A stretch of 48,231 bases of DNA, taken from the IMG/VR virus record IMGVR_UViG_3300029305_010146; one strand, given 5' to 3'. This document shows, in pieces, positions 7,433 through 45,594 of the stretch. The position numbers and the translations under genes are program-made. The stretch comes from an uncultured virus (IMG/VR IMGVR_UViG_3300029305_010146) (taxonomy: Duplodnaviria; Heunggongvirae; Uroviricota; Caudoviricetes). Under the pieces are notes generated by a model. The model saw only the letters and a program-made list of their open reading frames with translations. It ran no database searches and was not told the DNA's origin. Every line of letters begins with the position of its first letter. Position 1 is the first letter of the stretch.

Positions 7433-7439
7433 TAAAACA

Positions 7440-9487: not shown

Positions 9488-9492
9488 AATAT

Positions 9493-9525
9493 TAAACCCA
9501 AAACGAAAGTTTTGGGTTTATTTTT
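9493..9525 (+). terminator. Rho-independent terminator
   Basis: TAAACCCAAAAC-GAAA-GTTTTGGGTTTA followed by a T run. Confidence 0.85.
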
Positions 9526-9640
9526 CGCTTAACTTGAAAATAATTTTATTGACAAATATAATATTTCATAATAATATTTGGAATGAAGAATACTCTTATT
9601 CCAACAGAGGATTCTTTAATTTATAAAAGGAGATGATATT

Positions 9641-18231: not shown

Positions 18232-18267
18232 AAAATCCCCAATCATTAGATTGGGGATTCTTTTTTT
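18230..18267. terminator. Bidirectional terminator
   Basis: AATCCCCAATC-ATTA-GATTGGGGATT flanked by A and T runs. Confidence 0.8.
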
Positions 18268-20140
18268 ACAGTTTTGCAATTGTAAATTTGCTTTTCACAT
18301 CTCCACAATTGATAAGGAGAGTGTTATAGGGAGATTTCTCGACAACATCTTCCACCATATTGTAATTAGTAACATCAAGAGCATCTGTGTTATCCAAAAC
18401 GATTGTGTCGAAGTTAATTAACTTACAAATCAAAGATTTAAAAGCATAATTTACCACAACTCTTTCGCCAGTGGAAACTTCATTGATGTTGATTTCGCCA
18501 AGAGGTGTAACAATACAAATATCGAGATTTGCTCCATCGAACAAGAACTTAATCTTCCAATCACTCTTAATTTCAAACAAGATTTGATTCAATCCAGTTT
18601 CAATAGGAGTAATGATTTTTTCAAAAATCTTATTAGGAAGAACATTGAGCTCCTGCAGAATGAAAGAATACATTGCTGTAATTTTCTCTGCTTCCTCAAG
18701 ATTTTTCTTATTTTCCTCCAAACGCTTTACTGCATCTGCAATCTTCGAGGCATCGACGATTCTCTGCTTCACAGCAGTCAGTTCATTTCTCTTCTGCTCC
18801 AGAACACTCTTTTTCGCTTTTGTATCGACGATTGTGATTGACTTTGCTTTTGCTTCATTCAATTCAACACTCTTCTCAATGGCGCTGATTTTACCTTCAA
18901 TTGAGGCAAAAGCAGTTCTTTCTCTCTGCATATCGCTTCTCTTTTTAGTAAGTGTAACGACACTTCTTCGAGTTTCGTCTTTGTTCTTGGTGATTTCGGA
19001 AATGTTCTTTTCTATTTCTGCAATTTGGCTTTTCAACTCCGCAATCTTTGCGTCAACCTTCTTGCACTCTTCTCGCAATGCCTCAACTTCCTCATTGAGT
19101 TTATTTTTGGCATCGCTCATATTTGTCGTGCAAGGCAAACCAGCATACAAAGGACAAGTTGTAGTTGTGGAAAGGGTGTTCAAAATTTCCTTTTTACCCT
19201 TACCATTCTCAATTATAACCTGTCTTTGCGTGTTTACATCAGACAAAGAGTTGATTAACTGCAAGTGTGTTTTATTGAGTTCAATTAACTGTCGCTCATA
19301 ATCGGCACACTTCTGTTCTTCTCTTTCGATTTCAGCAATAATTGCTTCAACATCGCTTTCTGTGTACTGACAAACCTTTTGTTTTAACTGTTCGATTTCA
19401 GCACGACTTGTCGCAATATTCTGTTCGATGTCGGAACGAACTTTTGCATCTTTTTCGATAGCGAAGATTTCCCCAACAATTTTTTCAATATCCGTTTCGA
19501 TTGCTGTACTTTGTGCTACCAAAGTTCCAACATCTACAACTGTAACATTTTCATAAGGGGCATCAGTTTCGACCAATACTCGCATACTTTTGATTACACG
19601 ATTGCTTTCGGTTCTCATTGCATAGAATTTCTTATATGCCTTATTGATGGCAGGAATAGTGATAATATCAATATTCTCACCAGCAAAATATCTTTTTACA
19701 CTTGCCAGTGCTTCGTTCTCCAACTGCGTAAAAGAAAGAACCTTGTCAACATCTAATTGCATAGATGCGACTTTAAGCATTGTCTCTCCGTCCAATACAG
19801 TTTCAGTATCAAACAGGGAACAAAGAACATCGGGATTGTAACCAATTTTGTTCAAATGCTCATACATCGCAATTTCAGAACACACTTTCCCGTTCACACG
19901 AATAGTAGTGTTGCCATTTTTCTTTTGACGCGAAATTGTGATGCCAGAGAATTCAATGGTTCCGCTTCCTTCCGTTTCTCCATTTTTCAAAGACAAGCCC
20001 TTTCCCGTCAAAACAAAGTAAGGTGTCTTTGCGATAGTACTTTTGCCCGCACCATTAATGCCACAAAGTACAATTTTGTCATTCACATCAACAGTTTTGG
20101 GACTGCCGATAGAACGAAGATTATTTGCTGTTATTTTCAT
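18266..20140 (-). CDS. Rad50/SbcC-like ABC-type coiled-coil ATPase
   Basis: Walker A GINGAGKST, long coiled coil with central CPLYAGLPC, signature VSTGE, and Walker B/D-loop IVLDNTDALD. Confidence 0.8.
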   Translation of the reverse strand: MKITANNLRSIGSPKTVDVNDKIVLCGINGAGKSTIAKTPYFVLTGKGLSLKNGETEGSGTIEFSGITISRQKKNGNTTIRVNGKVCSEIAMYEHLNKIGYNPDVLCSLFDTETVLDGETMLKVASMQLDVDKVLSFTQLENEALASVKRYFAGENIDIITIPAINKAYKKFYAMRTESNRVIKSMRVLVETDAPYENVTVVDVGTLVAQSTAIETDIEKIVGEIFAIEKDAKVRSDIEQNIATSRAEIEQLKQKVCQYTESDVEAIIAEIEREEQKCADYERQLIELNKTHLQLINSLSDVNTQRQVIIENGKGKKEILNTLSTTTTCPLYAGLPCTTNMSDAKNKLNEEVEALREECKKVDAKIAELKSQIAEIEKNISEITKNKDETRRSVVTLTKKRSDMQRERTAFASIEGKISAIEKSVELNEAKAKSITIVDTKAKKSVLEQKRNELTAVKQRIVDASKIADAVKRLEENKKNLEEAEKITAMYSFILQELNVLPNKIFEKIITPIETGLNQILFEIKSDWKIKFLFDGANLDICIVTPLGEININEVSTGERVVVNYAFKSLICKLINFDTIVLDNTDALDVTNYNMVEDVVEKSPYNTLLINCGDVKSKFTIAKL

Positions 20141-20154: not shown

Positions 20155-20607
20155 TTAACCGAAATCGTAAACAGATATATCTCCTATATCAGTGTCTTCT
20201 TCATAGAGAACATTGTAATGCTCCCTAATCATATCTGCCAACTGTTCCTCGGTTAACTGTTTTTCAAAATCTGACATTTGCCATGGCATACATTTGCACA
20301 TTACCAGATACAGTCTGGAATTTTCATCAGAAAGTGCTTCCATGAAGTCGCATCCATATCTTTCGTTCATGACTTTTGCAATAATGAAAGGAATACCAGT
20401 GTAGTAATCCTGTTCAATTTCAGCAAAATCATCAACAGTTGCTTCTTCGTATTTCACATCCCAATCTTCCAATTGTTCTGTGACTTCTTTCCTAAATTCT
20501 GGTGCGAATTCAAGCAACTTTCGAATCTTATCTGGTGTGGTATTTGTACCACATCGATGGTCAAATTGAATTCCATAACCTCGTGTCTCATAACTCTGCA
20601 TTCCCAT
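20155..20607 (-). CDS. Acidic hypothetical protein, co-transcribed with the SbcC-like gene
   Basis: AGGAGG RBS, 150-aa ORF; no family recognised. Confidence 0.7.
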   Translation of the reverse strand: MGMQSYETRGYGIQFDHRCGTNTTPDKIRKLLEFAPEFRKEVTEQLEDWDVKYEEATVDDFAEIEQDYYTGIPFIIAKVMNERYGCDFMEALSDENSRLYLVMCKCMPWQMSDFEKQLTEEQLADMIREHYNVLYEEDTDIGDISVYDFG

Positions 20608-21793: not shown

Positions 21794-22570
21794 ATGGCAA
21801 GAGAAAATACCATTACTTTAGTAGGTGAGGTCAGTAGTCCTCTCACCATTACTCTCAACAAAGTTCATTCTACATACAGAGTTGCTTTTAATTTAAAAAC
21901 ACTTCGTAGAAATAATAGAACTGATTTTCCAAGAGTAAATGTCTTTGGACTCACAGAAGAACAGGCACGTAAAATGTACGAAGAATTCAAAATTGGCGAA
22001 TTCGTTATGGTTCGTGGCATGGTGTCTACAAAAATGGTCAAAAAAGTTATCAAATGTGAAGGTTGCGGTAAAGAATACGAATCTGATGCTCTCGTAACAG
22101 AAGTTATCGCATACTCTGCTCCAGTTCATCTCAATGGTGAATATGAAGCAAACGACTTGAAAGAGTTTGCAAACAACTTGCATATGATTGGTGCTGTATG
22201 CTCCGAAATTCAGTCAAGACAAAGTCCTTCTGGTGTTTCTATGACACAGTATCAGGTTGCTGTCAACAGAAAATATCATGTTAAAGAAAAGGAAGATAAA
22301 ACTGATTTTCCTTGGGTAAAAACATTTGGTAGACAAGCGGAGGAAGACGAAAAGCATCTTAAAGTTTCCTCACAAATTTACATCAACGGTGCTATCCAAA
22401 CACGCGAGGTTAACAAGAGCATTGTTTGCGACGAATGCGAATCTACTATTAAATATGTAGAAAATCTTGGTGAAATTGTGCCACAGGATGTAGAATATCT
22501 CAATAATTGTGTATTTGATGAAACCGAAAAGAAAGAAAACGACACAGAAATTACTACAGTTAATGAATAA
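21794..22570 (+). CDS. ssb: Single-stranded DNA-binding protein with two tandem OB folds, each carrying a CxxC
   Basis: Repeat 1: NTITLVG...RTDFPRVNVFG...VMVRGMVST...CEGC. Repeat 2: NNLHMIG...VAVNR...KTDFPWVKTFGRQAE...INGAIQTR...CDEC. Confidence 0.85.
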   Translation: MARENTITLVGEVSSPLTITLNKVHSTYRVAFNLKTLRRNNRTDFPRVNVFGLTEEQARKMYEEFKIGEFVMVRGMVSTKMVKKVIKCEGCGKEYESDALVTEVIAYSAPVHLNGEYEANDLKEFANNLHMIGAVCSEIQSRQSPSGVSMTQYQVAVNRKYHVKEKEDKTDFPWVKTFGRQAEEDEKHLKVSSQIYINGAIQTREVNKSIVCDECESTIKYVENLGEIVPQDVEYLNNCVFDETEKKENDTEITTVNE

Positions 22571-22588: not shown

Positions 22589-23392
22589 ATGAGAAGAAAG
22601 AAAAACCAACAGCAAGATGAAGGTTTTTTCATTGAGACTATTGATTTGTCTCCCTCTAATAACATAACACCCCCTCCAAGTAATTCAAATTATGGCAATC
22701 AGCCTACACCTTCTTTCGATGCAGGAATGTCAGAAAGAATTAATGAAAAACGCTTTGCAAAACGAGTTGGCAAAAAAATTAAAAATAATTTGGTTAAAAT
22801 TATTGCTTTTATACTTTGTCTTTACATGGTTTTCTTAATTGTTGGAGCATTAACTACCAACTATTATATTGATTCAGAAACAGGTACAAGACAACCAATT
22901 TTCGTAACCTTTAGCGATGTTGCAAAGAAGAAAGATTATAATGCACTCAAAGACGAGATGGCACAACTTCGCTCTGTTCTTGTAGATGTCCGAATTATTG
23001 AAATTAAGTATAATAATGGCGACATTGATGCAAGTGAAGCGGCATCAAGATATAACAAGCAATTGAGTAGAATCGATGTTATAATTCCAAAACTACAAGC
23101 ATTAAATGTAGGTGACGGCCAAGTGGCAATAAAAGAAGCAATGTTAACTTGTTACAAAAACTATTTAGCAGGTTATTTACAAGAAATGTACAAAGGTTTA
23201 ACCGCAAGCGATGCAACTGCGGTTAATTCTGCACTTAAATATCGTGAATATATGTTAAATAGTTATTTTGATAGCGAAACTTCTCTTGAAAAACTTGGAG
23301 AAAAACTAAAACTCAAAGATGAGTTTTTCGATTGGGAATTAGATAAGGCGGCCGCCGAAAAAGACCCAACAGCAATTTTAAAAAATAAATAA
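22589..23392 (+). CDS. Single-TM protein with helical extracytoplasmic domain
   Basis: One hydrophobic helix after a basic stretch; no family recognised. Confidence 0.7.
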   Translation: MRRKKNQQQDEGFFIETIDLSPSNNITPPPSNSNYGNQPTPSFDAGMSERINEKRFAKRVGKKIKNNLVKIIAFILCLYMVFLIVGALTTNYYIDSETGTRQPIFVTFSDVAKKKDYNALKDEMAQLRSVLVDVRIIEIKYNNGDIDASEAASRYNKQLSRIDVIIPKLQALNVGDGQVAIKEAMLTCYKNYLAGYLQEMYKGLTASDATAVNSALKYREYMLNSYFDSETSLEKLGEKLKLKDEFFDWELDKAAAEKDPTAILKNK

Positions 23393-23406: not shown

Positions 23407-24828
23407 ATGGCAGACGAAATTTCCTTGCGCTCTATGCAACAGTATATACAGCAATTAGAATCCCAATTGAGAATGAAGACAGAGCAAGTCGAAGAGCTCA
23501 ACAAGTATGTCTCTGATGCGTCATCTGCTGTTCAGCAAACGATTAACCAATGCAGAAAATTCTGCACCTCCATTTTGGAAGGCGAATTAGCATCTGGTAG
23601 AATAACACAAAAAGAAATCGAATCTCTCTCACTTACCGACCTTTTGGCTCGTGCAAAATCCGTTTACAATGCTAATCAGCAAAAATCGAGAGAAATTTAT
23701 ACAAAATTTTCTGAAAAAATTGAAGAAAAAAACAGAATGATTGAAGGACTGCAAGCACAGGTTTCACAGTTAATGATTCAACTTAATAGTGCAGACCCAA
23801 CAGCAATTCCAGAAGTGTCTGATGTTGAAAATTTAACGAGTGCACCAGTTTTTCCTATGGGAACATCGTTTGGAAACAAGGACAAAGGCATTAATCCCTC
23901 AAGACAAGCACTTACCGCAGCGAAGATTCTTGGAGACGGGGATGAGTCAGTTGTAAGTTTTTCTGATAAAGTTGCGACTGAAACTAACCTTAACTCAAAC
24001 GGTGTTATCAATAACGAAGCATTCAAAAAAAACTATCACATGATTGATTTAGATAAATTTATGAAAGATATTACTCCTCCAATGTGGTTGGTTATTCAAA
24101 CCATTGGTGAACAAGGAATCAATGAGCAAACTGAAATCAAAGCATTTATTTTGCAAAACCTTGTAGGAACAGACTCTTCTATAAATGACTCTACAATCAA
24201 TATTGCAATTTCTAATTTAATGAGAATGCAAATTCTCAAGAGAATTAAAATTGTATGCGGTAACAGATGGTTTTACATTTTTGAACTTGATGAAATGGGT
24301 GTTCGTGCTTACATTGGCAAATATTCAAAGAAACCAGTTATGAGCGAAGCACAAAAACTCATTAAGGAACACGACAACATCAAGCATGGTTATCTTATCA
24401 AAGAAGCATCTATGATTATGAAGAGTAAGTTTGATTACGAAAGTGTTTCTACATCAAGAAAAGTTAATTATATTAGATTGCCCAATGGAAAAGCCTGTAT
24501 TCCCGATATTACTTGTGCAAAACGAGGTCAAGTTGATTATTACGAAGTCGAATGTGGCAACCACAACCAAGAAGACTTCAATGATAAGTGCAACAAATAC
24601 AGAATGGTAACAAAAACAATCCACTTTGTTGTTCCGCAAAACGAAGTTCTCAAAACATTGCAATCTCAAATTACTGCTTGGATTAAATCCTGCGGTGGTC
24701 ATGCAGTGCTACAAAAAGGTGAAATGGTAGTTAAAGTAACTACCATGAAAAAATTACTTGAAAATAAGTGGGAACTCGTATATGATATGAGTAGCGATGA
24801 ACCAACAACATCGCAAAATCTTGTTTAA
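23407..24828 (+). CDS. Coiled-coil plus wHTH plus PD-(D/E)xK nuclease-fold protein, Replic_Relax-like (candidate relaxase/initiator)
   Basis: N-terminal heptad repeats; wHTH-like INIAISNLMRMQILKR...FELDEMG; IKHGY; IPDI...YYEVECG...DKCNKY, matching the H...PD...ExD/E.G...K..KY pattern. Confidence 0.55.
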   Translation: MADEISLRSMQQYIQQLESQLRMKTEQVEELNKYVSDASSAVQQTINQCRKFCTSILEGELASGRITQKEIESLSLTDLLARAKSVYNANQQKSREIYTKFSEKIEEKNRMIEGLQAQVSQLMIQLNSADPTAIPEVSDVENLTSAPVFPMGTSFGNKDKGINPSRQALTAAKILGDGDESVVSFSDKVATETNLNSNGVINNEAFKKNYHMIDLDKFMKDITPPMWLVIQTIGEQGINEQTEIKAFILQNLVGTDSSINDSTINIAISNLMRMQILKRIKIVCGNRWFYIFELDEMGVRAYIGKYSKKPVMSEAQKLIKEHDNIKHGYLIKEASMIMKSKFDYESVSTSRKVNYIRLPNGKACIPDITCAKRGQVDYYEVECGNHNQEDFNDKCNKYRMVTKTIHFVVPQNEVLKTLQSQITAWIKSCGGHAVLQKGEMVVKVTTMKKLLENKWELVYDMSSDEPTTSQNLV

Positions 24829-25213: not shown

Positions 25214-25771
25214 ATGTTTGGAAAAGATAAATATGTTCCAAAAAGTTCAAACGAGATTGTCTACCACAGTAAAGTCTCCTCACAAGATATTTGGCCAAAA
25301 GTTTTTGCTTGTGTTGTCTATATCGTGTCATTCCTGCTTTGGATGTATTTAGATAAAGCATATTATAATTTCGGAAGTAACATAATTACTCCTCTCACAG
25401 CGGCAATGTATGTTGTAGGTGCTGTGTTTGCAATTCTCTTGCCAAGTCAGAAAAAGGAAACGGTTAATCACACAAAATGGTTCGTAATCGGATATTTAGC
25501 AATAATGTTCGTTTATAAATTTGTAATTGCTGCCGTCGGCGGTGTTTCTTCCGATAGTTTAGCGGCCGCTTTCAATCAAGCACTTCCAACCACAACAGGA
25601 ACTGCTATTTCTGGTTGGTTACAAAATTTACTTTGGATTATCGCAATCACTTATCCAATCACTTTCTTTACGTTCCAAGCAAAGAAAATTCCACAATTTA
25701 TCAAGACTAGAAGTAAAGCACAAGCAATTAGACAAATTAGAGATATACGCGATAATACTAAACCTTATTAA
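25214..25771 (+). CDS. Four-TM integral membrane protein, co-transcribed with the Ser-rich ATPase
   Basis: Four hydrophobic helices and a basic C-terminal tail. Confidence 0.75.
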   Translation: MFGKDKYVPKSSNEIVYHSKVSSQDIWPKVFACVVYIVSFLLWMYLDKAYYNFGSNIITPLTAAMYVVGAVFAILLPSQKKETVNHTKWFVIGYLAIMFVYKFVIAAVGGVSSDSLAAAFNQALPTTTGTAISGWLQNLLWIIAITYPITFFTFQAKKIPQFIKTRSKAQAIRQIRDIRDNTKPY

Positions 25772-25794: not shown

Positions 25795-28700
25795 ATGTTG
25801 GATTTAGCAAGAATTTTAAGCAAATCAAAGCCTGGTTATGACGACGATTTAAAAATCCTCCGCAACTGGGCAGAATATTCAGATGACCGTGCAAACATGA
25901 ATTATCTGATGTACGAACTTGAGATGGAAGATGCTTCTGGAAAAGTAACTCATTTCTATAAGGCGATTAAACTCTTACGTATCATCAGATTGCCTAAATC
26001 TGCAAAACAGTCAAAATCCTTTATGGATATGCATGCGCAGGTTCTTGCAGCAATCTGGGAAAGAAATATTAAATTTATCACTGTTATAGCAAACATGCTT
26101 AATCCTGTTCCACTTGGACTTATGTATCTTTACGGTGTTCAAGGTGTTGCTGAAACAGAAGAGCAGGCAAAATTCATCGCTGATAACGATTACATTGCTC
26201 TTACAGCAGTCCTTCAAGGAACATACAGAGTTCTTGAATACAAGGTCATTTCTTACCAAGAATTAGAATGGTTAAGAGAAAAAATGTTTTCTATGAGAAA
26301 CATGACTGTTGTTAGAGGTATTCCAAAAGCAAAAGCTGGCGGTGTTGACGGTGGCGACAAAGGCATGGGTGCTGCTAACGTTAACCCTGAAAGTCAGGAC
26401 ACTACCGAAGAATTTATCGCAGGTATGAGTGATAAGGAATATGTTGTTCAAATTCTTTCGACCCCAGTTAAAGCAGAACATCTTGAAAGATGGCTTGCTC
26501 AAACTGCACAAGAGATGACAAGATGGAACAAACAACTTCAGGGAACAACTTCGTTCAATGCTGGTATTTCTTTACCTATGATGTATATGGCTAACCTCGG
26601 TGCATCCGAAGGCTGGAGTCACTCTTACACAGAAAGTGAATCTCTATCTACATCTGCAACTGATAGTGTTTCCACATCTTTCTCCACGTCGGTTGGTGAA
26701 AGTATTAGCCAATCTTTCGGCGAAAGTGTTGGTCATAGTTTTGGCGAATCTTTTTCCGAATCCACTGGCGAATCTTATAACACGTCTATCGGTACTTCTG
26801 AAGGAACAAGTTGGGGCGAAAGTATTGGTACAAGTCAAGGAACTTCACAGAATTTCTCTGAAAATGCTTCTTTTGGCAATTCTTATACAGAGTCCACAAA
26901 CGAATCAACAAGTCATACGGACTCCACAAACTCTTCGCTTTCAGAAGGAACGAGCACAAATACAAGTACTTCCCATTCAGAATCAACTTCTGTGTCTGAT
27001 GGAACAGGTACATCACAATCTACATCCAATACAACCACTAATAGTTCTTCACAAGGTTGGAGTTCGACAACTGGCGGTTCCACATCGCAATCGCATTCGA
27101 CAACCGAAACTGATACGACTGGCACTAACTCTTCTACAAGTCATGGCACAAGCGATACTCGTGGCACAACCCATACCACAAGTAGCTCTTCGACCGTTAC
27201 TGATACAACAGGCGGTAGTTCGAGTACTTCTGAAACAGATGGTTGGTCTAGAACACGTGGTAGCAGTAGTAATGAGGGTGTTTCGATTATTTACTCCAAT
27301 AGTGGAGGTAGCAACAGTGGTTCTACCGAAAGTGGTTCGACAACAACAACAGAAGGTACAAGTTGGAGTACCAGTAATGCTTCCACAAGAGGTACTTCTG
27401 ATGCAACAAGCAACAGTCATACAACAAGTAATACCACCACAACTGGTACATCTCAAAGTCATAGTACTGGTGTAAGTAACGGTACAACCAACACACAAAG
27501 TTGGAGTAACGGAACAAGTGGTTCTACAAGTGTAAGTCATAGCACAGGAACAACGGTTGGCACTAGCACAAACCACACTGAAACACGCGGTTATTCTGAT
27601 ACCGTATCTCAAGGTTATGGTACTTCTACCACAGTAAGCAATGGTGTTGGGGCAAGTGACTCTACATCGCAAGGCAGCGGTGAAAGTTGGGGACAAACAT
27701 CCTCTTATAGTCAAGGAACATCTGTTGGTATGAACCAAAATGCTTCGCACTCTGCTAATGTTGGCGGTAATTCTGGTGTTAGCACAAGTGATAGTTGGGG
27801 ACTTTCAAGCAGTCGTTCTTATGGTCAAACATCAACTGACTCTTATACTCAAAGCGCTACTTCAAGTGCTGGCAGAAACTATTCCGAAAGTAACGGTGTT
27901 GGTCAATCACAAAGTTGGGGAACAAGCAATGGTCAATCCATTGGCCAGTCCCTTGGTACAACTGGTGCTATTTCTTCTGGTACAAGTTCCAGCATGGGTC
28001 TCGGTCCATCCATTAGTTATGGTAAGTCCTATCAGTGGTTAGACCAAGAAGTTAAGAATATCTTAACTTTATTAGAATTCCAAAACCTCCGTCTTATGAA
28101 AGCACTCATGGGTAATGGTGCATTCTTTACGGATGTATATATTGCTACTCCTAACAAGGAAACACAAGCGGCTGCATCTATTCTCGCAAAATCCGCTTGG
28201 CAAAACGAAGAGGCCATGATTTGTCCATTACAAGTTTTAGACCTCAAGAAGGAAGAACAAGAGCATTTACTCTATCACTTCTCTGCATTTAGTGCAGATA
28301 ATACAAAAGAGGGCATCCCAGGCAGAATGGAATCCTACAGATATTCCACAATTTTGTTACCTGGCGAATTCACAGCATTTACACACATGCCTCGTATTTC
28401 TGAAGGTGGCGTCTTTGCTGATGTCAACGATATGCCTAAATTTGCAGTTCCATCTATGAAGAAGGGTGATATCTATATGGGTAAAATCCTCTCTGGTGAA
28501 AGATGGACACCTAACGATGGTTATGAAACTAAATTTGACTATCGTCTCGATGAAGGCGAATTGATGCACGGTATCTTCACTGGTGAGTCCCGCTCTGGTA
28601 AGACCGTTGCTGCAACTCGTTTCGTAGCAGAACTCACAAAGGTTAGAAGAAAGAAAACTGGTAAGAGATTGAGAATCGTTGCTCTTGACCCAAAACAAGA

Positions 28701-29808
28701 CTGGCGTATTCTTGGCAAATTCGTCGAACCAGAGAGATTCCACTTCTATTCTCTTGGCAACCCAGAGTTCTTGCCAATTAACCTTAATATTTGTAAAGTT
28801 CCTCACAATGTTAACCCACAGACTTGGGTTGACGGCATTATTGAAATCTATTGTCGTTCCTATGGTCTTCTTGAACGTGGTAAAGCAATTCTTGCTGAAA
28901 CATTCTATTCGCTCTATAGTGAAGCAGGTGTTTTCGAAGACTCGCCTAACTGGAGAGACTTCGTTCCAGAACGTTCGAGTAAAGTTACAATGTGCAAGAT
29001 TTACGAAAGAATGATGAAGATTAAAGTTGACCTCGAAGACCCAACCGTTTCTGGCAAAGGTCGTATGGGTAATGAAGCACGCGATGCTTATACTCGTGTT
29101 CTTGACCGTATGCAGGTATTTGGTCGTAAGTTCTCCATCGAGTCTCGTCTCTTTGGTCAAGAAGACGGCATTGCCGTTGACGAACTTATCGGTGGCGACG
29201 ACATCATCGTTCTCGAATCCTATGGTCTTGAAACAACCTTTAAGAACTTTATCTTCGGTTGTGTAACAAGTGGTTTCTTCAAATATGCACAAGGCCACGA
29301 AGGTGGTTTCCTTGCTGCCGACCAGTACGAAACTGTCTTGATTATCGAGGAAGCAAACGAAGTTCTTACTGGTTCTGATACCGCTGGTTCTGGTGGTGGC
29401 AATATGCCATCTCTCGGTGGTCAGTCCGAGTTCGAAAAGATTCTCGACCAGTCTGCTGGTCTTGGTCTATTTATCATCGCTATCACACAGAAGATTGCCG
29501 ATATGCCAAGTTCCTGTGTTGCTAACTCTGGTCTTATCTTCGCTGGTAAGATTTCGAGAGCAGACGACGTTACATTGGTTATCCGTAAAATCGGTCGTGA
29601 AGAGAGATACGATGACCGTGACATCTTAAAATGGTTTCCTCGTTCTCCAATTGGTTGGTTCGTATGTCGTTCTTCCAGAAACTTCGACTTCAAAGATACA
29701 GAACCTGTATTGGTACACATCGACCCACTCGGTGTCAACCCACCTTCCAACAAAGAACTCGAAACTATCATTGCAGAAAGAAAAGCAATGGAACTCTTAT
29801 ACACATAA
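25795..29808 (+). CDS. HerA/VirB4/FtsK-superfamily pumping ATPase with a ~500-aa Ser/Thr/Gly-rich insert
   Basis: HGIFTGESRSGKT (Walker A), VALDPKQDW, LIIEEANEVL (Walker B), IIAITQKIAD, ANSG. No signal peptide or helical TM segment. Confidence 0.85.
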   Translation: MLDLARILSKSKPGYDDDLKILRNWAEYSDDRANMNYLMYELEMEDASGKVTHFYKAIKLLRIIRLPKSAKQSKSFMDMHAQVLAAIWERNIKFITVIANMLNPVPLGLMYLYGVQGVAETEEQAKFIADNDYIALTAVLQGTYRVLEYKVISYQELEWLREKMFSMRNMTVVRGIPKAKAGGVDGGDKGMGAANVNPESQDTTEEFIAGMSDKEYVVQILSTPVKAEHLERWLAQTAQEMTRWNKQLQGTTSFNAGISLPMMYMANLGASEGWSHSYTESESLSTSATDSVSTSFSTSVGESISQSFGESVGHSFGESFSESTGESYNTSIGTSEGTSWGESIGTSQGTSQNFSENASFGNSYTESTNESTSHTDSTNSSLSEGTSTNTSTSHSESTSVSDGTGTSQSTSNTTTNSSSQGWSSTTGGSTSQSHSTTETDTTGTNSSTSHGTSDTRGTTHTTSSSSTVTDTTGGSSSTSETDGWSRTRGSSSNEGVSIIYSNSGGSNSGSTESGSTTTTEGTSWSTSNASTRGTSDATSNSHTTSNTTTTGTSQSHSTGVSNGTTNTQSWSNGTSGSTSVSHSTGTTVGTSTNHTETRGYSDTVSQGYGTSTTVSNGVGASDSTSQGSGESWGQTSSYSQGTSVGMNQNASHSANVGGNSGVSTSDSWGLSSSRSYGQTSTDSYTQSATSSAGRNYSESNGVGQSQSWGTSNGQSIGQSLGTTGAISSGTSSSMGLGPSISYGKSYQWLDQEVKNILTLLEFQNLRLMKALMGNGAFFTDVYIATPNKETQAAASILAKSAWQNEEAMICPLQVLDLKKEEQEHLLYHFSAFSADNTKEGIPGRMESYRYSTILLPGEFTAFTHMPRISEGGVFADVNDMPKFAVPSMKKGDIYMGKILSGERWTPNDGYETKFDYRLDEGELMHGIFTGESRSGKTVAATRFVAELTKVRRKKTGKRLRIVALDPKQDWRILGKFVEPERFHFYSLGNPEFLPINLNICKVPHNVNPQTWVDGIIEIYCRSYGLLERGKAILAETFYSLYSEAGVFEDSPNWRDFVPERSSKVTMCKIYERMMKIKVDLEDPTVSGKGRMGNEARDAYTRVLDRMQVFGRKFSIESRLFGQEDGIAVDELIGGDDIIVLESYGLETTFKNFIFGCVTSGFFKYAQGHEGGFLAADQYETVLIIEEANEVLTGSDTAGSGGGNMPSLGGQSEFEKILDQSAGLGLFIIAITQKIADMPSSCVANSGLIFAGKISRADDVTLVIRKIGREERYDDRDILKWFPRSPIGWFVCRSSRNFDFKDTEPVLVHIDPLGVNPPSNKELETIIAERKAMELLYT
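26542..28035 (+). repeat. Period-2 low-complexity S/T/G/N-x coding repeat (aa ~250-747 of the ATPase)
   Basis: Small residues at odd positions and bulky residues at even positions over ~470 aa; no exact DNA tandem repeat seen. Confidence 0.85.
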
Positions 29809-29985: not shown

Positions 29986-31530
29986 ATGGCAAATGGAATT
30001 TATTTTATCGAACCAAATTCCAGCATCATTTCGGATTTTGAAAGTTATTTTTTAATTAATGATAATGTAAAATTTATTGGCGGCAGTCCTTCGTTCCAAC
30101 AAGCGATTAATGTAATCAAAACAACGCCAGATATCAGATATCTCGTAATTAATGAGCAAGCACTCGATGCAGATTGCTTGACCATACTCGCTCAATTAGG
30201 TGGAACAAGTGCTATCAAAATTGTCACTCTTGAGAGCAATAATGAAGTTCTTAAGAATAGACTTTCCCAAATGGGCGTTATTACGATTAATAAACCTTAC
30301 ACTTATTCCGATTTGGAAACTATTTTTAATGGAGGTATGAATATGAATACCTTCAACGAAACAAATAATTTTGTAGGAAATCCAAACGACAACCCTTTTA
30401 TGGCAAATCGTCCAGGTACTACACCTGTTGCGAGTCCAAGTGCTCGCCCAGATATTCAGGAGCGCTTACGCAACATTCGTAGAAAGCCACCTGAAAATAA
30501 AAATAAAATTATCAAGCAAAAAGTAGTTGCTATCCACAACCAAAAAGGTGGTGTTGGTAAATCTACCGTTGCCAAGGAATTAGCAACCGCACTTCGTTGC
30601 ATGAAGATTCAAGCAAATGGCGAAGAATACAAACCAAAGGTTTGTTTATGCGATTTCGATTTAGACTCTTCCGATATCGTATCTCTCCTCAATCTTCCTA
30701 CATTCCCCAATATTTCCCTTTGGGTTGATGACATGGAAGAAGAAGCACGCCGTACTGGACAGTCTATTGAAAATGTTCGTTTTACCGAAAGAGACATCAA
30801 AGACAACTATTTGCTCAAGGATGTAAATGGTAGTGGTATCTTCGTTCTTGCTGCACCAGAAGATAAAACGGAAAGTACAAGAATTCACATGGAACACATT
30901 GAAGGCATCATTGAAAACTTAAAGCTTTGTGATTTCGATATTATTATCCTTGATACTGGTCCAAACATTTTTGACTATACCATTATGTCTTTAATGAAGT
31001 CCGATATTATTTTGGCAATTTCCACTTGCGAAGTTGCTTCTGCAAAACGTTTAGATGGTGTTATTGCTGATATTCTTTCTAGAATGCCAGAATACAATCC
31101 AGAAAAAGTTAAGCTCGTTATCAACAAGTACAACCCGAACACTAATATTTCTCCTCAAGAACTTATCGATGTACTTAATCTCGAACTTTATGGTGTCATT
31201 CCTAACTATCCAGAGATTTCCAACATGAATAACTCTGGTTATTCCGCTTTTTATAACAAAGCAAGAAACAAGGAAGAGAGCGGTGCATATATCGCAAGTA
31301 TAATTGAGATTGCGAAAAAAGTTTCAGGAATCGACAAACTTCAACAAAGAAATAACTCTGCTATGCAGGGAGGCCCACAGCAACAAGTCCCTGCTCAACA
31401 ACAGCAAATGCCCCCTCAACAGCAGCAGTTCAATCCTCAACAGCAGCAGTTTGTACCTCCTACACCACCCGCACAGCAGAAACCAAAGAAGAAAGGTTTC
31501 TTCTCAAATTTCTTCGGTGGTAAAAAATAA
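29986..31530 (+). CDS. CpaE/TadZ-like MinD/ParA ATPase with pseudo-receiver domain and C-terminal membrane-targeting helix
   Basis: Receiver-like N-terminus ending NKPY; deviant Walker A KGGVGKST; CDFD; IILDTGP; VINK; Gln/Pro linker; KKKGFFSNFFGGKK. Confidence 0.85.
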   Translation: MANGIYFIEPNSSIISDFESYFLINDNVKFIGGSPSFQQAINVIKTTPDIRYLVINEQALDADCLTILAQLGGTSAIKIVTLESNNEVLKNRLSQMGVITINKPYTYSDLETIFNGGMNMNTFNETNNFVGNPNDNPFMANRPGTTPVASPSARPDIQERLRNIRRKPPENKNKIIKQKVVAIHNQKGGVGKSTVAKELATALRCMKIQANGEEYKPKVCLCDFDLDSSDIVSLLNLPTFPNISLWVDDMEEEARRTGQSIENVRFTERDIKDNYLLKDVNGSGIFVLAAPEDKTESTRIHMEHIEGIIENLKLCDFDIIILDTGPNIFDYTIMSLMKSDIILAISTCEVASAKRLDGVIADILSRMPEYNPEKVKLVINKYNPNTNISPQELIDVLNLELYGVIPNYPEISNMNNSGYSAFYNKARNKEESGAYIASIIEIAKKVSGIDKLQQRNNSAMQGGPQQQVPAQQQQMPPQQQQFNPQQQQFVPPTPPAQQKPKKKGFFSNFFGGKK

Positions 31531-31550: not shown

Positions 31551-32993
31551 ATGGATTTACACGATAAAATCAAAAGAAGCAATAATTTGGAAAATTCTTC
31601 TTATGCTCCATTTAGACAAAATGGTGCAGATAGAGGCAATTACACCAAATCCTCATATAGACAGAGAAATCCGAATCGTCAAGCACCTCGTTCTGTGCAA
31701 TATCAACCAGAAGCAGAAGAAGTGTTTAATCCCAACATCCCATTTAATGATGTTCAGGAACAAGGTATGCCTGTCGTAAATAATTTTGAAGTAAATAATA
31801 TGGCAATGCCGTCCGTATCAATGCCATCTGCGCCAATGCAACAGCAACCAGCACAGCAGGAATTTAACGGAAATGATTTTTTCAATACTGTTCCTCATCA
31901 AGGAACTCCTAATTTTAACGACACTGTACCAGCAACGCCTGTGTTACCGAATTTTTCGACACCAGTAACACCAGTAATACCAACTGCAACTGTGCCTATC
32001 GCAGAGAGTGCACCTGCTGAAACACCTCTTAAAAACCCTGCTGACGATTACAGTAATTTTGCTATTCCCAATGTCAGCACAGAAAAGATTTTGCAAGAAG
32101 ATATGGATAAAGTAGAAAAAACATTCTACAATGCATTGGTCTCGCTTTTCGACAGATATGAAATCGATAAGGTACTAATTGTTGAAAATAAGATTTATAC
32201 AGTAAACTTCACTGGTGATGAAGATGCCGAAATCTTCGAAGAGGCACTTGATGAAGAATTATTAAGTAAATTTTCAAAGTATTTTGTCGCAGACGGGTAT
32301 TTTGAAGCATTACTTGTAAACGGTTGTAAACTGGAGATGACCTATAGACCAGTTTCCGAACTTCCAACAATTATTGTGTCAAAACCACATTCCGACTTTT
32401 TTGTAGATGAAGAATTTATTTCTATTCTTTTTGAATTTCTATCAAAAGGAAAGAATGTAGTTATGTTATCCAATTTCGCAATTGATACAATGTATAAGAT
32501 TATTTCCGATTTTTTCAATAACAATCTATGTATTACTATCAACGAACCAATAAAAACAGAAAACAATGTTGCTTTTAGAGAGAATCCTCTTAAACCCTCT
32601 CTTAAAACTGTTTACTCTATGTCTAAAAAAATTGAACCAGACAATACACTTGTGTATTCTCCAACAGATTTGTTATCAACCATTTCTTATATGAAGAAAA
32701 ACAATAGTGTTGTTTTGTTCTCCGAAACAGACACACCTTCCGATTTTATTAATGCTGATGTAATTCATGCATTGGGCGGACAAAGCGAATATAATCGCAT
32801 TAGTATTTTGAAAGCAGTAGATATAATTTTCACTGTTGTCCCTACTAAAAATGGCACAATCAAATATACCGCTACACAGTTGCTTTCGCCAACCAACAAA
32901 TCGCATGTTAATAAAATCAAAAAGATTATTGGAGATGCAGAGATTGATTTAAATAAAATTTACTTCAACAATGTTTTCGAAAAAGAAATCTAA
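31551..32993 (+). CDS. Degenerate CpaF/TadA (VirB11-family) pseudo-ATPase with disordered N-terminus
   Basis: FEALLVNGCKLEMTYRPVSELPTIIVSK, GKNVVMLS, SKKIEPDNTLV and KAVDIIFTV follow the CpaF motif order, but Walker A and Walker B residues are absent. Confidence 0.55.
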   Translation: MDLHDKIKRSNNLENSSYAPFRQNGADRGNYTKSSYRQRNPNRQAPRSVQYQPEAEEVFNPNIPFNDVQEQGMPVVNNFEVNNMAMPSVSMPSAPMQQQPAQQEFNGNDFFNTVPHQGTPNFNDTVPATPVLPNFSTPVTPVIPTATVPIAESAPAETPLKNPADDYSNFAIPNVSTEKILQEDMDKVEKTFYNALVSLFDRYEIDKVLIVENKIYTVNFTGDEDAEIFEEALDEELLSKFSKYFVADGYFEALLVNGCKLEMTYRPVSELPTIIVSKPHSDFFVDEEFISILFEFLSKGKNVVMLSNFAIDTMYKIISDFFNNNLCITINEPIKTENNVAFRENPLKPSLKTVYSMSKKIEPDNTLVYSPTDLLSTISYMKKNNSVVLFSETDTPSDFINADVIHALGGQSEYNRISILKAVDIIFTVVPTKNGTIKYTATQLLSPTNKSHVNKIKKIIGDAEIDLNKIYFNNVFEKEI

Positions 32994-33104: not shown

Positions 33105-35195
33105 ATGATTACTATTTTTGCAGAAAAACCAGACATGGCGCGACGAATCGCCAGTGCTATGTCTACAAGAATAACAAAACAACAACACCATATCGATGTC
33201 GAATATAATGGTGAAAAATATTGTGTAACTTGGGGTTATGGTCACCTTTGTGAATTATGTGAAGTGAAAGACTATACACCAGATTACAAATGGAACACAA
33301 CTAATTACCCTTTTTATCCCGATGAATTTAAATTAAAATTAAAGGCAGGTATAAACCCACAGCAAACAAAGACTAACAAGGAACATTTTGCTGAATTAAA
33401 GAAAATGTTTAATTCTTCCGATTATATTATTAATGCAACTGACGCCGACAGAGAAGGCGAGTTAATCTTTGCTTATGTATATGAATATATGAAATGCAAA
33501 ACACCTTGGAAGCGTTTGTGGTTGAATTCTACTGAAAATACAGCAATTCGTACTGCCTTATCAAAATTAAAGGACAGTAGAGAAATGTTGCCTCTGCAAA
33601 ATGCGGGCAGATGCCGTTCCGAAGCAGATTGGTTGATTGGTATCAATGCTACCGTACTTTCAACTTTGAGTTTTGGTGGATTTGGAAATATGATGAATGT
33701 TGGTCGTGTGCAAACACCAACTCTTGCTTTTTTAGTAAACAGAGAAAATGAAATTCGCAGTTTTATTTCGAAACCGTTTTGGACGGTAAAAGGTATTTTC
33801 GAAACCTTTAATAATGAAAAATACGAAGGTTCTCTAAAAAAACCAGAACGTTTTGACAGCAAAGAAGAAGCAGAACAATTTATCAGCAAACTCGATAAAA
33901 GTACTTCTTTTGTTGCAAAATGCGAAAAAGTGCCAGACCGCAAAAAACCCCCTCTTTTATTTGACCTTAATGCTTTGCAAATGCAGGCAAACTCTGACTT
34001 TGGTTTTTCGGCACAAAAAACTCTCGATATTGCACAAAAACTTTACGAAATGCAATATATCACATATCCTAGAACAACATCTAAATACTTACCAGAAGAC
34101 CTCAAAAATGAAGTTTATGGAGTTTTAGATAGCTTTGAGGGGGACTATGGAAAATGGGCATCAAAAATTAAGAGTAGAAGACAAACTGTATCAAAACCTT
34201 ATTTCGACAATTCCAAGGTTGAAAGTCACTATGCAATTATCCCAACTTCAAAGGTTCCCTCTGGGTTATCTTCCGATGAAGAAAAACTTTATGACATTAT
34301 TGCAAAAAGTTTGATTAGAATTTTTTATCCCGATGCAATTTTTAACAAAACAATAATAGAGACAGATGTGTCACATGAAATTTTTGTATCAAAAGGTTCT
34401 TCTTTACAAGAATTGGGTTGGATGGAAGTAGGATACAAAACAAAAGAAGATACAATTCTTCCAAATGTTTCTACAAACGAAAAGGTCAAAACATTGGAAA
34501 TTTCGATGACAGAAGGAAAAACTGAACCACCAAAAAGATATACAGACAAAACATTATTAAGCACTATGGAAACCGCTGGTAAATTTGTTGATTCGGAAGA
34601 ATTAAGACTTATGATGAAAGACTCTGGTCTCGGAACTCCCGCAACTCGTGCTGGTATTATAGAAAAATTAATCCGCTCTGGTTATGTTGAAAGAGATAAA
34701 AAAACACTTATTCCAACAGAAAAAGGAATTTTCTTAATTAAAAATCTCCCTTGCGAAGAATTAAAATCGCCAGAAATGACGGGTGCTTGGGAAAAAAGAA
34801 TCAATGATGTTGAAAAAGGAAAAGATAGTTTTGAATCTTTTATTACAGACATTAAAAAGCAAACGGATAAAATTTGCATCTCCATTACCGATAACAAAGT
34901 AAGTGACGAAGAGAAATTTACAACAAAAGACAATTCTTCGTTGGGAACTTGCCCACTTTGCGGTGGTGATGTCATAAAGAAATCATGGGGTTATGGTTGT
35001 GCCAATTATAATACAACAAAATGTTCGTTCTCAATTAGTAGTTCGATTTGTGGCAAGCGAATGACTGATACAATCGTCAAAAAATTGCTCTCTACTGGTT
35101 CTACTGGTAAAATTAGCGGTTTTAAATCAAAAGCAGGAAAATCTTTTTCCGCAACCATCAAACTTATTGATGGAAAAACTGAATTTGAATTTTAA
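33105..35195 (+). CDS. topB: DNA topoisomerase III (type IA) with C-terminal zinc ribbon and repeat
   Basis: AEKP, TWGYGHL, ATDADREGE, GRVQTPTL, ITYPRT (catalytic Tyr), HYAIIPT, GLGTPATRA, CPLC and GFKSKAGKSF. Confidence 0.93.
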   Translation: MITIFAEKPDMARRIASAMSTRITKQQHHIDVEYNGEKYCVTWGYGHLCELCEVKDYTPDYKWNTTNYPFYPDEFKLKLKAGINPQQTKTNKEHFAELKKMFNSSDYIINATDADREGELIFAYVYEYMKCKTPWKRLWLNSTENTAIRTALSKLKDSREMLPLQNAGRCRSEADWLIGINATVLSTLSFGGFGNMMNVGRVQTPTLAFLVNRENEIRSFISKPFWTVKGIFETFNNEKYEGSLKKPERFDSKEEAEQFISKLDKSTSFVAKCEKVPDRKKPPLLFDLNALQMQANSDFGFSAQKTLDIAQKLYEMQYITYPRTTSKYLPEDLKNEVYGVLDSFEGDYGKWASKIKSRRQTVSKPYFDNSKVESHYAIIPTSKVPSGLSSDEEKLYDIIAKSLIRIFYPDAIFNKTIIETDVSHEIFVSKGSSLQELGWMEVGYKTKEDTILPNVSTNEKVKTLEISMTEGKTEPPKRYTDKTLLSTMETAGKFVDSEELRLMMKDSGLGTPATRAGIIEKLIRSGYVERDKKTLIPTEKGIFLIKNLPCEELKSPEMTGAWEKRINDVEKGKDSFESFITDIKKQTDKICISITDNKVSDEEKFTTKDNSSLGTCPLCGGDVIKKSWGYGCANYNTTKCSFSISSSICGKRMTDTIVKKLLSTGSTGKISGFKSKAGKSFSATIKLIDGKTEFEF

Positions 35196-35210
35196 TTTCA
35201 AGAAAACCTA

Positions 35211-35239
35211 TTGACAAAGTTAAAAATATATGTTATAAT
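35211..35239 (+). promoter_or_regulatory. Consensus extended sigma-A promoter
   Basis: TTGACA-17 nt-TATAAT with TG. Confidence 0.8.
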
Positions 35240-35284
35240 AAAGTAAAAAAGAAAGTATATTTTATTATAGGAGGCGAAAAATCA

Positions 35285-35464
35285 ATGAAAAGTGCTTTAT
35301 TCTTTATTCTATTTTTTGTAAATGCACTATGCGGTTTTTATTTTAGAAACCCTATCGCATTTGGTTTTTCCATTTTAGCATTAGCAGTCTCCATCCTTTT
35401 TGCAAGCAGAACTCGTGTTGAAGAAGAGGACAGAGAAGAGGAAGAATTAGAAACTGAAAAATAA
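35285..35464 (+). CDS. 59-aa two-TM microprotein with acidic tail (absent from the ORF track)
   Basis: AGGAGG RBS and own promoter; translation MKSALFFILFFVNALCGFYFRNPIAFGFSILALAVSILFASRTRVEEEDREEEELETEK. Confidence 0.75.
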   Translation: MKSALFFILFFVNALCGFYFRNPIAFGFSILALAVSILFASRTRVEEEDREEEELETEK

Positions 35465-35496
35465 TACAATAAAGTCAATTTATATCACTCATGCAA

Positions 35497-35527
35497 AGAG
35501 CGGAGTGTCTCTTTGACACTCCGCTCT
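35497..35527. terminator. Strong stem-loop without T tail
   Basis: AGAGCGGAGTGTC-TCTTT-GACACTCCGCTCT. Confidence 0.55.
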
Positions 35528-35580
35528 AATAATAGACTTTTTAATAACTTTCTTTTATAAAAACAAAGGAGTTGTTATTT

Positions 35581-35898
35581 ATGGCAGAAATCATTACAAA
35601 ATGCCCCTGTTGTGGTGGCGACATTGTAGAATCCGATAAAGCATTCGGATGTGCTAATTGGAACAATAAAGAAAAGCCTTGTGACTTTACTATATGGAAA
35701 ACAATTAGTAAGAAAAAAATCAAAAAAGAACAAGCTATTGATATTTGCACAAAAGGCAGAAGTTTGCTAATCGAGGGTTTTACGAGTAAAGCTGGAAAAC
35801 CTTTTTCCGCTTTCCTTGTCATTACTGATGACGAAACTAAAAAATGTGGAAAACGAATTTCATTTGAATTCCCCGAAAGAAAAACGGAGGGCGAATAA
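35581..35898 (+). CDS. Stand-alone topoisomerase IA C-terminal zinc-ribbon/repeat protein
   Basis: CPCCGGDIV...FGCANW...CDFTIWK...GFTSKAGKPFSAFL...FEF; parallels the last ~85 aa of the neighbouring TopB. Confidence 0.8.
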   Translation: MAEIITKCPCCGGDIVESDKAFGCANWNNKEKPCDFTIWKTISKKKIKKEQAIDICTKGRSLLIEGFTSKAGKPFSAFLVITDDETKKCGKRISFEFPERKTEGE

Positions 35899-41124: not shown

Positions 41125-41148
41125 GAGGAAAATTCAGGAGGAGAAATT

Positions 41149-45559: not shown

Positions 45560-45567
45560 CATTTTTC

Positions 45568-45593: not shown

Positions 45594-45594
45594 C

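Follow-up and report, generated by a model that had tools for sequence, protein, structure and literature searches.

The window analysed here, a stretch of 48,231 nt recorded in IMG/VR as the uncultured virus IMGVR_UViG_3300029305_010146, encodes a 1337-residue protein (open reading frame, ORF, at 25795..29808, + strand; hereafter the window protein) in which an insert with small residues at nearly every odd position (nt 26542-28035, residues 250-747) separates an N-terminal domain from a predicted HerA-clade ATPase module. The patterns described below make it almost certain that this insert is one giant antiparallel β-hairpin whose two strands stay in register from base to tip. An earlier note on this DNA had proposed such a hairpin with a hydrophobic tip, instead of a disordered linker, and the proposal is borne out by the register, the equal arms and the charge pairing between them.

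The alternation was examined first at the level of composition. Small residues (S, G, T, N or A) occupy 244 of the 249 odd positions in residues 250-747, the full count being S124, G61, T39, N17, A3, M2, P1, I1 and Q1, and the even positions hold T59, E23, S21, Q19, V16, Y13, N13, H12, D12, A10, W9, G8, I8, F7, L7, R7, M3, P1 and K1, which gives the insert an overall composition of 29% S, 20% T and 14% G. In the arms of the window protein the period-2 power is 15-32 times expectation and no 3.6-residue period is present. A residue count also confirms what the earlier note had listed: the odd-small, even-bulky alternation itself, the even position of all nine Trp residues (274, 340, 422, 484, 524, 570, 632, 668 and 708), the absence of Pro, Lys and Cys between residues 270 and 737, and I499 as the sole bulky odd-position residue in that interval. 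The mirrored composition described in the same place is visible in the window protein and not significant across the family, where a comparison of mirrored with direct composition profiles gave p=0.04 (uncorrected) for aromatics and nothing for the other residue classes. Cys is absent from all 27,961 insert residues of the family representatives. Because Tandem Repeats Finder returned only two short 12-nt arrays, and the longest direct repeats measure 14-24 nt, the alternation is not a product of recent DNA repeats.

The pairing register of the two arms was obtained by counting outward from two flanking prolines in the raw sequences, so that the arms were not aligned to each other. These anchors are well conserved (among 74 sequences, 73 keep Pro at P261 and 64 at P738), and the register is i+j = a1+a2-3, with a1 and a2 denoting the equivalents of P261 and P738 in each protein. 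For the window protein this gives i+j=996, residue i lying opposite residue 996-i from the base (F254/Y742) to an apex at I498. The earlier note had placed the apex at I499, with i+j near 998; its central hydrophobic GVSIIYSN was correctly located, and its register has to be replaced by 996.

Charge pairing on the outer face supports this register. Like charges face each other in 54 pairs against a null of 110.6±9.4, and opposite charges in 158 pairs against 88.7±8.3, both values being reached in 0 of 2000 shuffles. The register outperforms the others individually in 58 of 63 proteins, and the effect persists in all windows of distance from the base, the farthest being 130-200 residues. Opposite-charge pairs are also raised two and four residues off register (delta -1, +1); since this rise is seen only in windows far from the base, it is read as drift caused by small indels. 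Other outer-face pairs are likewise enriched at the register: His-acid (101 vs about 30 at other registers), Thr-Thr (108 vs about 65) and aromatic-aromatic (43 vs about 28). Together with the salt bridges, these are cross-strand pairs of the kind that solvent-exposed β-sheets usually show.

The inner face is more restrictive. Over the whole hairpins of 64 homologues, Gly-Gly (G-G) pairs occur 37 times in 7057 rungs, compared to about 559 times at other registers; they are absent from base to tip in 52 of the 64 proteins (44-189 rungs each), and the register is the unique G-G minimum of the 24 tested in 56 of them, the exceptions including proteins with apex inserts. In a pair table built from 6424 rungs of 58 proteins, the observed/expected ratio is 0.02 for G-G, 0.15-0.29 for G-A, 0.70 for S-S, 0.28 for T-T, 0.15 for N-N and 0.2-0.3 for N-S, and it rises to 1.5-1.7 for S-G, 2.8-3.0 for N-G and 3.6-4.2 for T-A. 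These ratios amount to a predicted pairing rule for the inner face, by which S, T or N on one strand faces G, A or S on the other. When the arms were compared as parallel strands no signal appeared, with 540-603 G-G pairs per about 6900 rungs at every shift, and a fold-back test within arm 1 was flat. Apart from physical strand pairing, no process known to us gives such a mirror rule at the protein level.

The same register can be recognized in single proteins. In the window protein, the 117 inner-face rungs (263...495 vs 733...501) include no G-G pair, no pair of T/N with T/N, and 57 pairs with one Gly. This double zero is found at no other of 23 registers; among 200,000 permutations of the arm-2 inner face, G-G fell to zero 17 times, T/N-T/N 43 times, and both together never. 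At the register that its prolines predict, the homologue on pRUMAL01 of Ruminococcus albus 7 has 142 rungs and not one G-G pair, compared to 6-25 such pairs at 60 other registers. For the window protein alone, the charge pairs (one like, two opposite) are too few to read, and a fine-scale cross-correlation of hydrophobicity between its arms gave no sharp register.

Coarser features of the family agree with a two-armed structure. The phase of the alternation was tracked with a three-state Viterbi model in 70 full-length representatives, of which 25 showed no phase switch, 41 one, two showed two, one three and one five; 66 of the 70 therefore have none or one, and the extra switches are mostly short central segments. 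Where there is a single switch it lies at 0.49±0.06 of the insert (44 proteins). The lengths of the two arms, which range from 26 to 398 residues in these 44 proteins, are correlated with r=0.92, and the arm-length differences between nearest neighbours (31 independent pairs, no protein used twice) are correlated with r=0.62 (p=2e-4), with near-exact cases such as -58/-58, -151/-150 and 171/193. The earlier note had expected insert length to vary symmetrically about the tip and by even numbers: the changes are indeed symmetric, and odd-length changes do occur, being confined to the apex, as indicated by the 41 of 70 representatives that switch phase exactly once and centrally.

The centre of the insert also stands out in its composition. 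Among proteins without a switch, 17 of 22 have their most hydrophobic 7-residue window between 0.45 and 0.55 of the insert length, as do 29 of 42 with one switch; of the 43 prolines found inside inserts, 30 belong to the middle fifth. Near the switch, positions -7, -5, -3, -1, 0 and +2 are hydrophobic, with Gly at +1 in 56% and Pro at 0 in 24%. When the apex is computed from the base anchors only, it falls on hydrophobic Pro/Gly turns (e.g., ...SIGI|PGTG..., ...GISV|PGFS... and ...SGGL|PGLS...), in agreement with the conserved central hydrophobic turn that had been anticipated for homologues. Since eight representatives carry a larger non-alternating segment there (about 100-240 residues), the apex appears to tolerate inserted domains, which would be displayed at the tip. 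In the homologues P0186, P0141, P0176 and P0202, such segments of ~100-240 residues are located exactly at the hairpin apex.

In the window protein the hairpin comprises about 117 inner-face rungs and about 240 residues per strand, and across 58 homologues the arms range from 91 to 381 residues. Arm 1, the putative ascending strand (residues 250-497, 26542..27285, + strand, as are all parts of the ORF), has an acidic, His-rich outer face; the apex GVSIIYSN (residues 495-502, 27277..27300), with its turn centred on I498, is followed by arm 2, the putative descending strand (residues 499-747, 27289..28035), whose outer face is more basic than that of arm 1. At the base, the first five to six rungs form a hydrophobic belt composed of F254, A256, I258, L260, P261, M262 and Y264 in arm 1 (26554..26586), where the outer face is hydrophobic and the inner face S/N/G, and of M734, L736, P738, I740, Y742, K744, Y746 and W748 in arm 2 (27994..28038). 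Hydrophobic residues fill the positions of F254, A256, I258, L260, M262 and Y264 in 86-100% of 64 homologues and those of M734, L736, I740 and Y742 in 92-100% of homologues, and the belt residues of the two arms pair mutually at the 996 register. The other face of these base rungs is already S/N/G (69-98%). On its motor side the belt is bordered by basic residues (the T252 position is charged in 77%, mostly R/K, and the K744 position is K/R in 61%) and by the aromatics Y746 and W748.

Selection along the protein was estimated as the ratio of nonsynonymous to synonymous substitution rates (dN/dS) against a relative with a 98% identical ATPase module, for which dS is near saturation. The ratio is 0.03 in the N-terminal domain, 0.03 at the base of arm 1, 0.13 in the distal half of arm 1, 0.25 in the distal half of arm 2, 0.06 at the base of arm 2 and 0.03 in the ATPase module, and it reaches up to 0.47 at outer-face sites of the distal halves. 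The distal halves thus appear relaxed symmetrically about the tip, and the arm bases appear constrained like globular domains; this is relaxation and not demonstrated positive selection. Close relatives (P0002-P0014) compared to P0001 have ATPase modules that are 96-100% identical and inserts that are 17-34% different. One of them, P0014, is a mosaic: near the tip it is identical to P0001 over long stretches, and at the base it diverges, which suggests recombination between alleles.

The whole ORF is a full-length member of the curated NCBIfam family NF033849 (ser_rich_anae_1, "serine-rich protein"), with a score of 1440.4 bits against a cut-off of 650. The name of this family reflects composition and comes without a stated function, and no function, fold or two-arm architecture was found attached to it; in RefSeq the homologues from pRUMAL01 of R. 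albus 7 and from an Alkaliphilus plasmid are named likewise. In a word-indexed search, 645 of the scored candidates had E<=1e-3, and an exhaustive search gave 401 clusters at 50% identity, 120 of them at E<=1e-30. The N-terminal domain (residues 1-249, 25795..26541) aligns to NF033849 profile positions 1-216 and is conserved across homologues; its Atlas lead, DUF8128, scores only 0.85, under the reliability level of the tool. A Pfam scan gave no match for the whole protein, the N-terminal domain or the C-terminal 590 residues.

The C-terminal module (residues 748-1337, 28036..29808) was assigned by comparison of the family profile with solved HerA/DUF87 structures, and is on this basis a predicted HerA-clade P-loop ATPase. 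A profile of 74 members matches PDB entries 8yho (1.2e-20), 9c1m (1.7e-20), 8xau (2.5e-19) and 4d2i (1e-9), and the same profile matches FtsK at 1.7e-6. Of 34 homologues, 24 contain DUF87 (PF01935) at E<=0.01, and the Pfam gathering score is reached by 15 of these. A Walker A motif, GESRSGKT (residues 930-937, 28582..28605), contains G935 and K936, invariant in 74 sequences, and a Walker B motif, VLIIEE (residues 1181-1186, 29335..29352), contains E1185 and E1186, conserved in at least 90%. The P-loop core and Walker A/B are shared with the HerA/DUF87 ATPases (4d2i, 8yho, 9c1m, 8xau), from which the window protein differs in lying under the Pfam thresholds and in adding an N-terminal domain and a hairpin of about 240-245 residues per arm. 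It also differs from known HerA settings, as no PADLOC match was obtained and NurA-type and Sir2-type partner families were unmatched in Pfam scans of the neighbouring genes. The earlier note had called this ATPase HerA/VirB4-like; the HerA part of the description holds (profile E about 1e-20), and no family test supports the VirB4 part. Pfam reported no CagE_TrbE_VirB or AAA_10 match in the window protein, and AAA_10 appeared only sub-threshold in 3 of 34 homologues. In one homologue, P0240 (1864 residues), a LAGLIDADG homing-endonuclease domain lies within the ATPase part (residues ~1274-1329), which suggests a possible intein.

The gene of the window protein belongs to a conserved module, in the order (PolIII alpha) - SSB - 267-residue protein - 473-residue protein - 185-residue protein - hairpin ATPase - ParA/CpaE-like protein - CpaF/PilT-like ATPase. 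In the window, the following members of this module are on the + strand: an SSB-family protein (21794..22570; PF00436 at 3.3e-20), which heads the module and is found upstream in 16 loci; a 267-residue bitopic membrane protein of syntenic position, with one hydrophobic segment at residues 64-94 (22589..23392); a 473-residue protein with a coiled-coil N-terminus and C-terminal PD...ExE...K-like residues (23407..24828); a 185-residue polytopic membrane protein, with three to four hydrophobic helices judged from its hydrophobic segments (25214..25771), whose homologue lies directly upstream in 20 of the 24 loci holding upstream DNA; and, directly downstream, a ParA/MinD-type ATPase of the TadZ/CpaE kind (29986..31530). 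A ParA-like gene is located downstream in 25 of 35 loci, followed in 10 of those by a CpaF/PilT-like ATPase, and PolIII alpha adjoins the module in eight loci. In R. albus 7 the ParA-like gene is followed by TadB/TadC-like genes and a prepilin peptidase. In the window, the place of the CpaF/PilT-like ATPase is occupied by a 480-residue protein (31551-32993) with a Q/P/N-rich N-terminal half and no family match, which may be a degenerate or replaced Tad ATPase.

The two membrane proteins and the 473-residue protein match no family in Pfam or NCBIfam, and Pfam scans of 26 partner homologues returned sub-threshold coiled-coil noise only. The 473-residue protein has the invariant residues D367, E380, E382, K394 and K397, a D...ExE...K pattern from which a nuclease-like role can be proposed; its profile reaches a best E of 0.023 against PDB, and its Atlas lead, Replic_Relax, scores only 0.77, under the reliability level of the tool. 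PADLOC found no defence family in the module.

An inner face as strictly size-matched as this one should not lie open to solvent. It must therefore be covered by a partner of the same length, for which further copies of the hairpin are the simplest candidates. Second-order couplings point in the same direction. One rung tipward of the direct partner, G-G reaches 1.88 where 1.35 is predicted from the direct-partner coupling, and one rung baseward 0.92 where 1.24 is predicted, with this tip/base asymmetry in 54 of 58 proteins; two rungs tipward it is 0.59 where 0.94 is predicted (39 of 58 proteins). These values hint at diagonal stripes of like residues, as expected of a larger regular sheet or barrel, and do not fix the number of strands. 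We consider it rather probable that the hairpins assemble as a multi-hairpin rod or barrel. All structural statements made here derive from sequence statistics, which are strong for the hairpin with its apex and belt and only suggestive of anything larger; the barrel, its strand number and its degree of hollowness are inferred.

Dimensions were taken from the standard barrel formula and represent a calculation, not a model. A barrel of four or six strands would have a packed or nearly packed core, which fits the rung size limits. A 12-stranded barrel formed by a hexamer would be hollow, with a lumen of 1.3-2.3 nm, and the lower rung size limit (no G-G, no G-A) would then have no obvious reason. 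A narrow, tightly packed core thus accounts for the strict pair rule more readily than a wide lumen filled with water, and a solid rod seems at least as likely as a tube. The shaft of the window protein would measure about 80 nm untilted, about 64 nm at a tilt of 37° and 45 nm at 55°.

The explanation that we favour, at a confidence evenly divided between acceptance and doubt, places the giant hairpin, inserted between the N-terminal domain (residues 1-249) and the HerA-clade ATPase module (residues 748-1337), in a ring. HerA-family ATPases form hexameric rings, and the hairpins of the ring subunits would come together through their inner faces as a single closed, rod-like β-barrel shaft, roughly 45-65 nm in length according to the tilt of the strands, projecting from a membrane-associated motor. 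This motor would be part of a plasmid-encoded DNA-moving apparatus, together with the SSB, the two membrane proteins and the nuclease-like protein, and followed by the Tad/type IV pilus genes. The conserved module context suggests DNA transfer; that the apparatus is a trans-envelope DNA-transfer machine is a more tentative step, to which we give somewhat less than even credence, and both its location in the envelope and its DNA substrate are what we infer from this context. A comparable gene logic is known from the crenarchaeal Ced DNA-import system, in which the HerA/VirB4-like CedB acts with small membrane proteins and works with Ups type IV pili. The likeness, a HerA-like ATPase beside small membrane proteins and type IV pilus genes, lies in gene arrangement only, and the hairpin-ATPase module differs in being bacterial and plasmid-borne and in having an SSB and the giant hairpin.

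Several observations weigh against a closed barrel on a membrane-bound DNA motor. A hydrophobic-segment scan of the window protein found no signal peptide-like, N-terminal hydrophobic or helical membrane segment; the crossing of a membrane by a polar hairpin of 480 residues is unexplained, and the base belt could instead be buried in the protein body. A register scan from -201 to +201 gave no second strict arm1-arm2 register, so that there is no clear signature of pairing between hairpins. The tight lining is not universal, as distant relatives have charged arms without a small-residue face; these relatives keep the period-2 hydrophobicity (5-10 times expectation), the base strands and a hydrophobic Gly-rich centre. 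In the window protein itself no DUF87 match reaches the Pfam gathering score, and Pfam and NCBIfam scans of the window ORFs found none of the neighbours of a type IV secretion system that were looked for (relaxase, VirD4 coupling protein, VirB6/VirB8-like proteins), the nearest resemblance to such a system in the window being the small upstream membrane protein. Finally, replication genes (PolIII alpha, SSB and primase) also adjoin the module, so a role in replication, repair or segregation is possible.

The last point leads to the main rival reading, which we regard as rather unlikely and in which the hairpin is a cytoplasmic β-strand arm or tether, the counterpart of the coiled-coil arms of SMC/Rad50, serving megaplasmid replication, end processing, repair or segregation. 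A HerA-type motor would be held at a fixed distance from a target of the apex (the inner membrane face, partner membrane proteins or a second apex), and the 473-residue protein and the SSB would act as NurA and SSB do alongside archaeal HerA. The parallel is close in architecture: in both cases an ATPase head is interrupted by two long, equal antiparallel arms of matched and lineage-variable length (here about four-fold, 91-381 residues, as coiled-coil arms vary), with a conserved apex that can carry domains, as it does in the eight representatives with inserts of 100-240 residues. The adjoining PolIII alpha (8 loci) and SSB (16 loci), the D...ExE...K pattern of the 473-residue partner, the adjacent ParA-type ATPase and the lack of an export signal would all suit a cytoplasmic function. 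On the other hand, the inner face is far too size-matched for solvent exposure, so that several arms would still have to pack; the operon conserves two membrane proteins, with Tad/type IV pilus genes after them; the belt at the base resembles a membrane or collar segment beside the motor, not at the far end; and the nuclease assignment of the 473-residue partner is without database support. The arms themselves cannot be coiled coils of the SMC/Rad50 type, given a period of 2 at 15-32 times expectation and no 3.6-residue period; they would be β strands, the ATPase is HerA-type and not ABC-type, and there is no sequence relationship.

Two further readings concern what the insert itself forms. 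As the earlier note proposed, six hairpins could build a 12-stranded hollow barrel whose small polar lumen carries single-stranded DNA or unfolded protein out of the cell, which would combine motor and conduit in one polypeptide; such a hollow conduit appears improbable to us. It is favoured by the hexameric rings of the HerA family, to which the protein is assigned by profile and DUF87, by a continuous uncharged S/T/N/G lining from the hydrophobic belt to the hydrophobic tip, by the SSB in the operon, and by the diagonal couplings, which fit a sheet wider than two strands. The stems of β-barrel pore-forming toxins (anthrax PA, iota Ib, CDTb, α-haemolysin and aerolysin) offer a model, as each subunit contributes one alternating Ser/Thr/Gly/Asn-rich hairpin with a hydrophobic Gly-containing tip, as in the window protein. 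The hairpin-ATPase arms are about 5-10 times longer than those of the toxins, and the window hairpin differs in its fusion to a cytoplasmic-type ATPase, its lack of a secretion signal and its hydrophobic belt at the base and not only at the tip. Family profile positions 333-502, within the insert, match the pore-forming region of iota toxin Ib and CDTb marginally (E 1.2e-3 to 1.3e-2), probably through a shared alternating S/T/G composition and not common descent; so marginal a match over a low-complexity insert does not show homology, and the likeness of the hairpin to the toxin stems is one of working principle and not of membership. Against a hollow tube stand the size floor of the rungs and the ban on N-S, T-T and N-N, which have no obvious reason in a DNA-wide lumen, the lack of a second strict register, and a tip whose hydrophobic patch comprises only about four alternating residues per strand, short of a bilayer span. 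An equally doubtful, or slightly more doubtful, version is a HerA hexamer whose six hairpins close up as a 12-stranded barrel, each hairpin being staggered by four residues, with the base belt sitting in the donor membrane, the acidic shaft passing through the Gram-positive wall and the hydrophobic Pro/Gly tip collar entering the recipient. This geometry would fit the couplings at +1 and +2 rungs and would give a Cα radius of about 15 Å, a lumen of about 2 nm and a length of about 45 nm; the motor and the conduit for plasmid DNA would in that case be united in one polypeptide, lined with uncharged Ser/Thr/Asn/Gly. By far the least probable reading treats the insert as a low-complexity Ser/Thr-rich linker, whether disordered, glycosylated as in the serine-rich-repeat adhesins known from Gram-positive cocci, or stacked as a β-solenoid or amyloid-like structure. 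The S, T and G content is in its favour, as are the alternating Ser dipeptides of serine-rich-repeat adhesins and a weak match to the ClfA repeat region in NCBIfam (1.4e-05, 23 bits vs a cut-off of 1150). Such a linker or solenoid predicts neither equal arms, nor an exact antiparallel register over up to 189 rungs, nor charge complementarity, nor a Pro/Gly apex, and the flat fold-back test within the arm also speaks against it. Membership among the serine-rich-repeat adhesins was rejected, as the insert is not built of DNA tandem repeats, there is no hydrophobic N-terminal signal segment and the protein ends in an ATPase module. A linker that is disordered or glycosylated is effectively excluded.

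The window looks like part of a large plasmid. The exact window protein is present on 17 contigs, the longest of 268 kb, and its relatives are found on the 421-kb pRUMAL01 of R. albus 7, and on the 436-kb Alkaliphilus plasmid; a 898-kb plasmid of Pontibacillus carries a distant one of 23% identity, which is annotated as DUF87. A search of a phage collection gave no match to the hairpin ATPase, and one of IMG/VR a single partial match. Thirty-three loci from species genomes belong mostly to Lachnospiraceae, Oscillospiraceae, Ruminococcus, Blautia, Anaerostipes and Fusicatenibacter, with the addition of Neobacillus; the labels of a few metagenome-assembled genomes (Methanocorpusculum, Bacteroides) are probably binning errors. 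In two gut metatranscriptome runs of one study, contigs of 196-385 nt that are 95-99% alike map to the 473-residue gene, to the gene of the membrane protein and to both terminal regions of the ORF; contigs from an RNA library do not show transcription.

Other genes of the window include a type IV pilus set at 912-13237, with PilM-like, PilB-like (T2SSE, 2.6e-130), PilT-like and PilC-like proteins, followed by two very large prepilin-motif proteins of 662 residues (with BspA-type leucine-rich repeats) and 1198 residues. On the - strand, a 624-residue SMC/Rad50-like ATPase (18266-20140) matches an archaea-specific SMC-related family at 2.4e-14 and LmuB of Lamassu at 1.6e-11, and a 150-residue ORF without family (20155-20607) lies upstream of it. 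Replication genes are located at 16514-17464 (- strand) and 44368-48122 and comprise a DnaG-like primase, a DnaQ-like 3'-5' exonuclease and PolIII alpha (PHP + DNA_pol3_alpha). A type IA topoisomerase (Topoisom_bac, 6.8e-120) is followed, within 33105-35898, by a separate 108-residue ORF with an extra copy of the topoisomerase C-terminal repeat (Toprim_Crpt, 1.2e-20), after which comes a DUF4046 protein. A MoxR-type AAA_5 ATPase and a VWA protein lie at 39490-43410, and a PP2C phosphatase is also encoded. No tRNA genes and no Rfam families at the gathering threshold were found in the whole window (1-48231).

A continuous in-register two-stranded β ladder of 90-380 residues per strand has, to our knowledge, no counterpart among described protein architectures. 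Full-text literature searches, judged from the search results alone, retrieved no precedent for such a ladder and no paper on the NF033849 family or the hairpin architecture. The hairpin ATPase is not the curiosity of one genome, being represented by at least 401 clusters and located on large plasmids of common gut and rumen Clostridia, the cultured R. albus 7 among them. Its simple pair rules (S/T/N over G/A/S in each rung, charge pairs outside) recommend it as an exceptionally clear natural model for the study and design of long β structures. If the cytoplasmic arm were true, the hairpin would be a β-strand answer to the coiled coil of SMC/Rad50; if the shaft spans the envelope, it would bear on how DNA crosses the thick Gram-positive wall. 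Under either reading, the SSB, the two membrane proteins, the nuclease-like protein, the ATPase and the Tad genes would together constitute an undescribed plasmid machine. In the favoured reading, the hairpin may be the shaft of a so far undescribed machine for DNA transfer.

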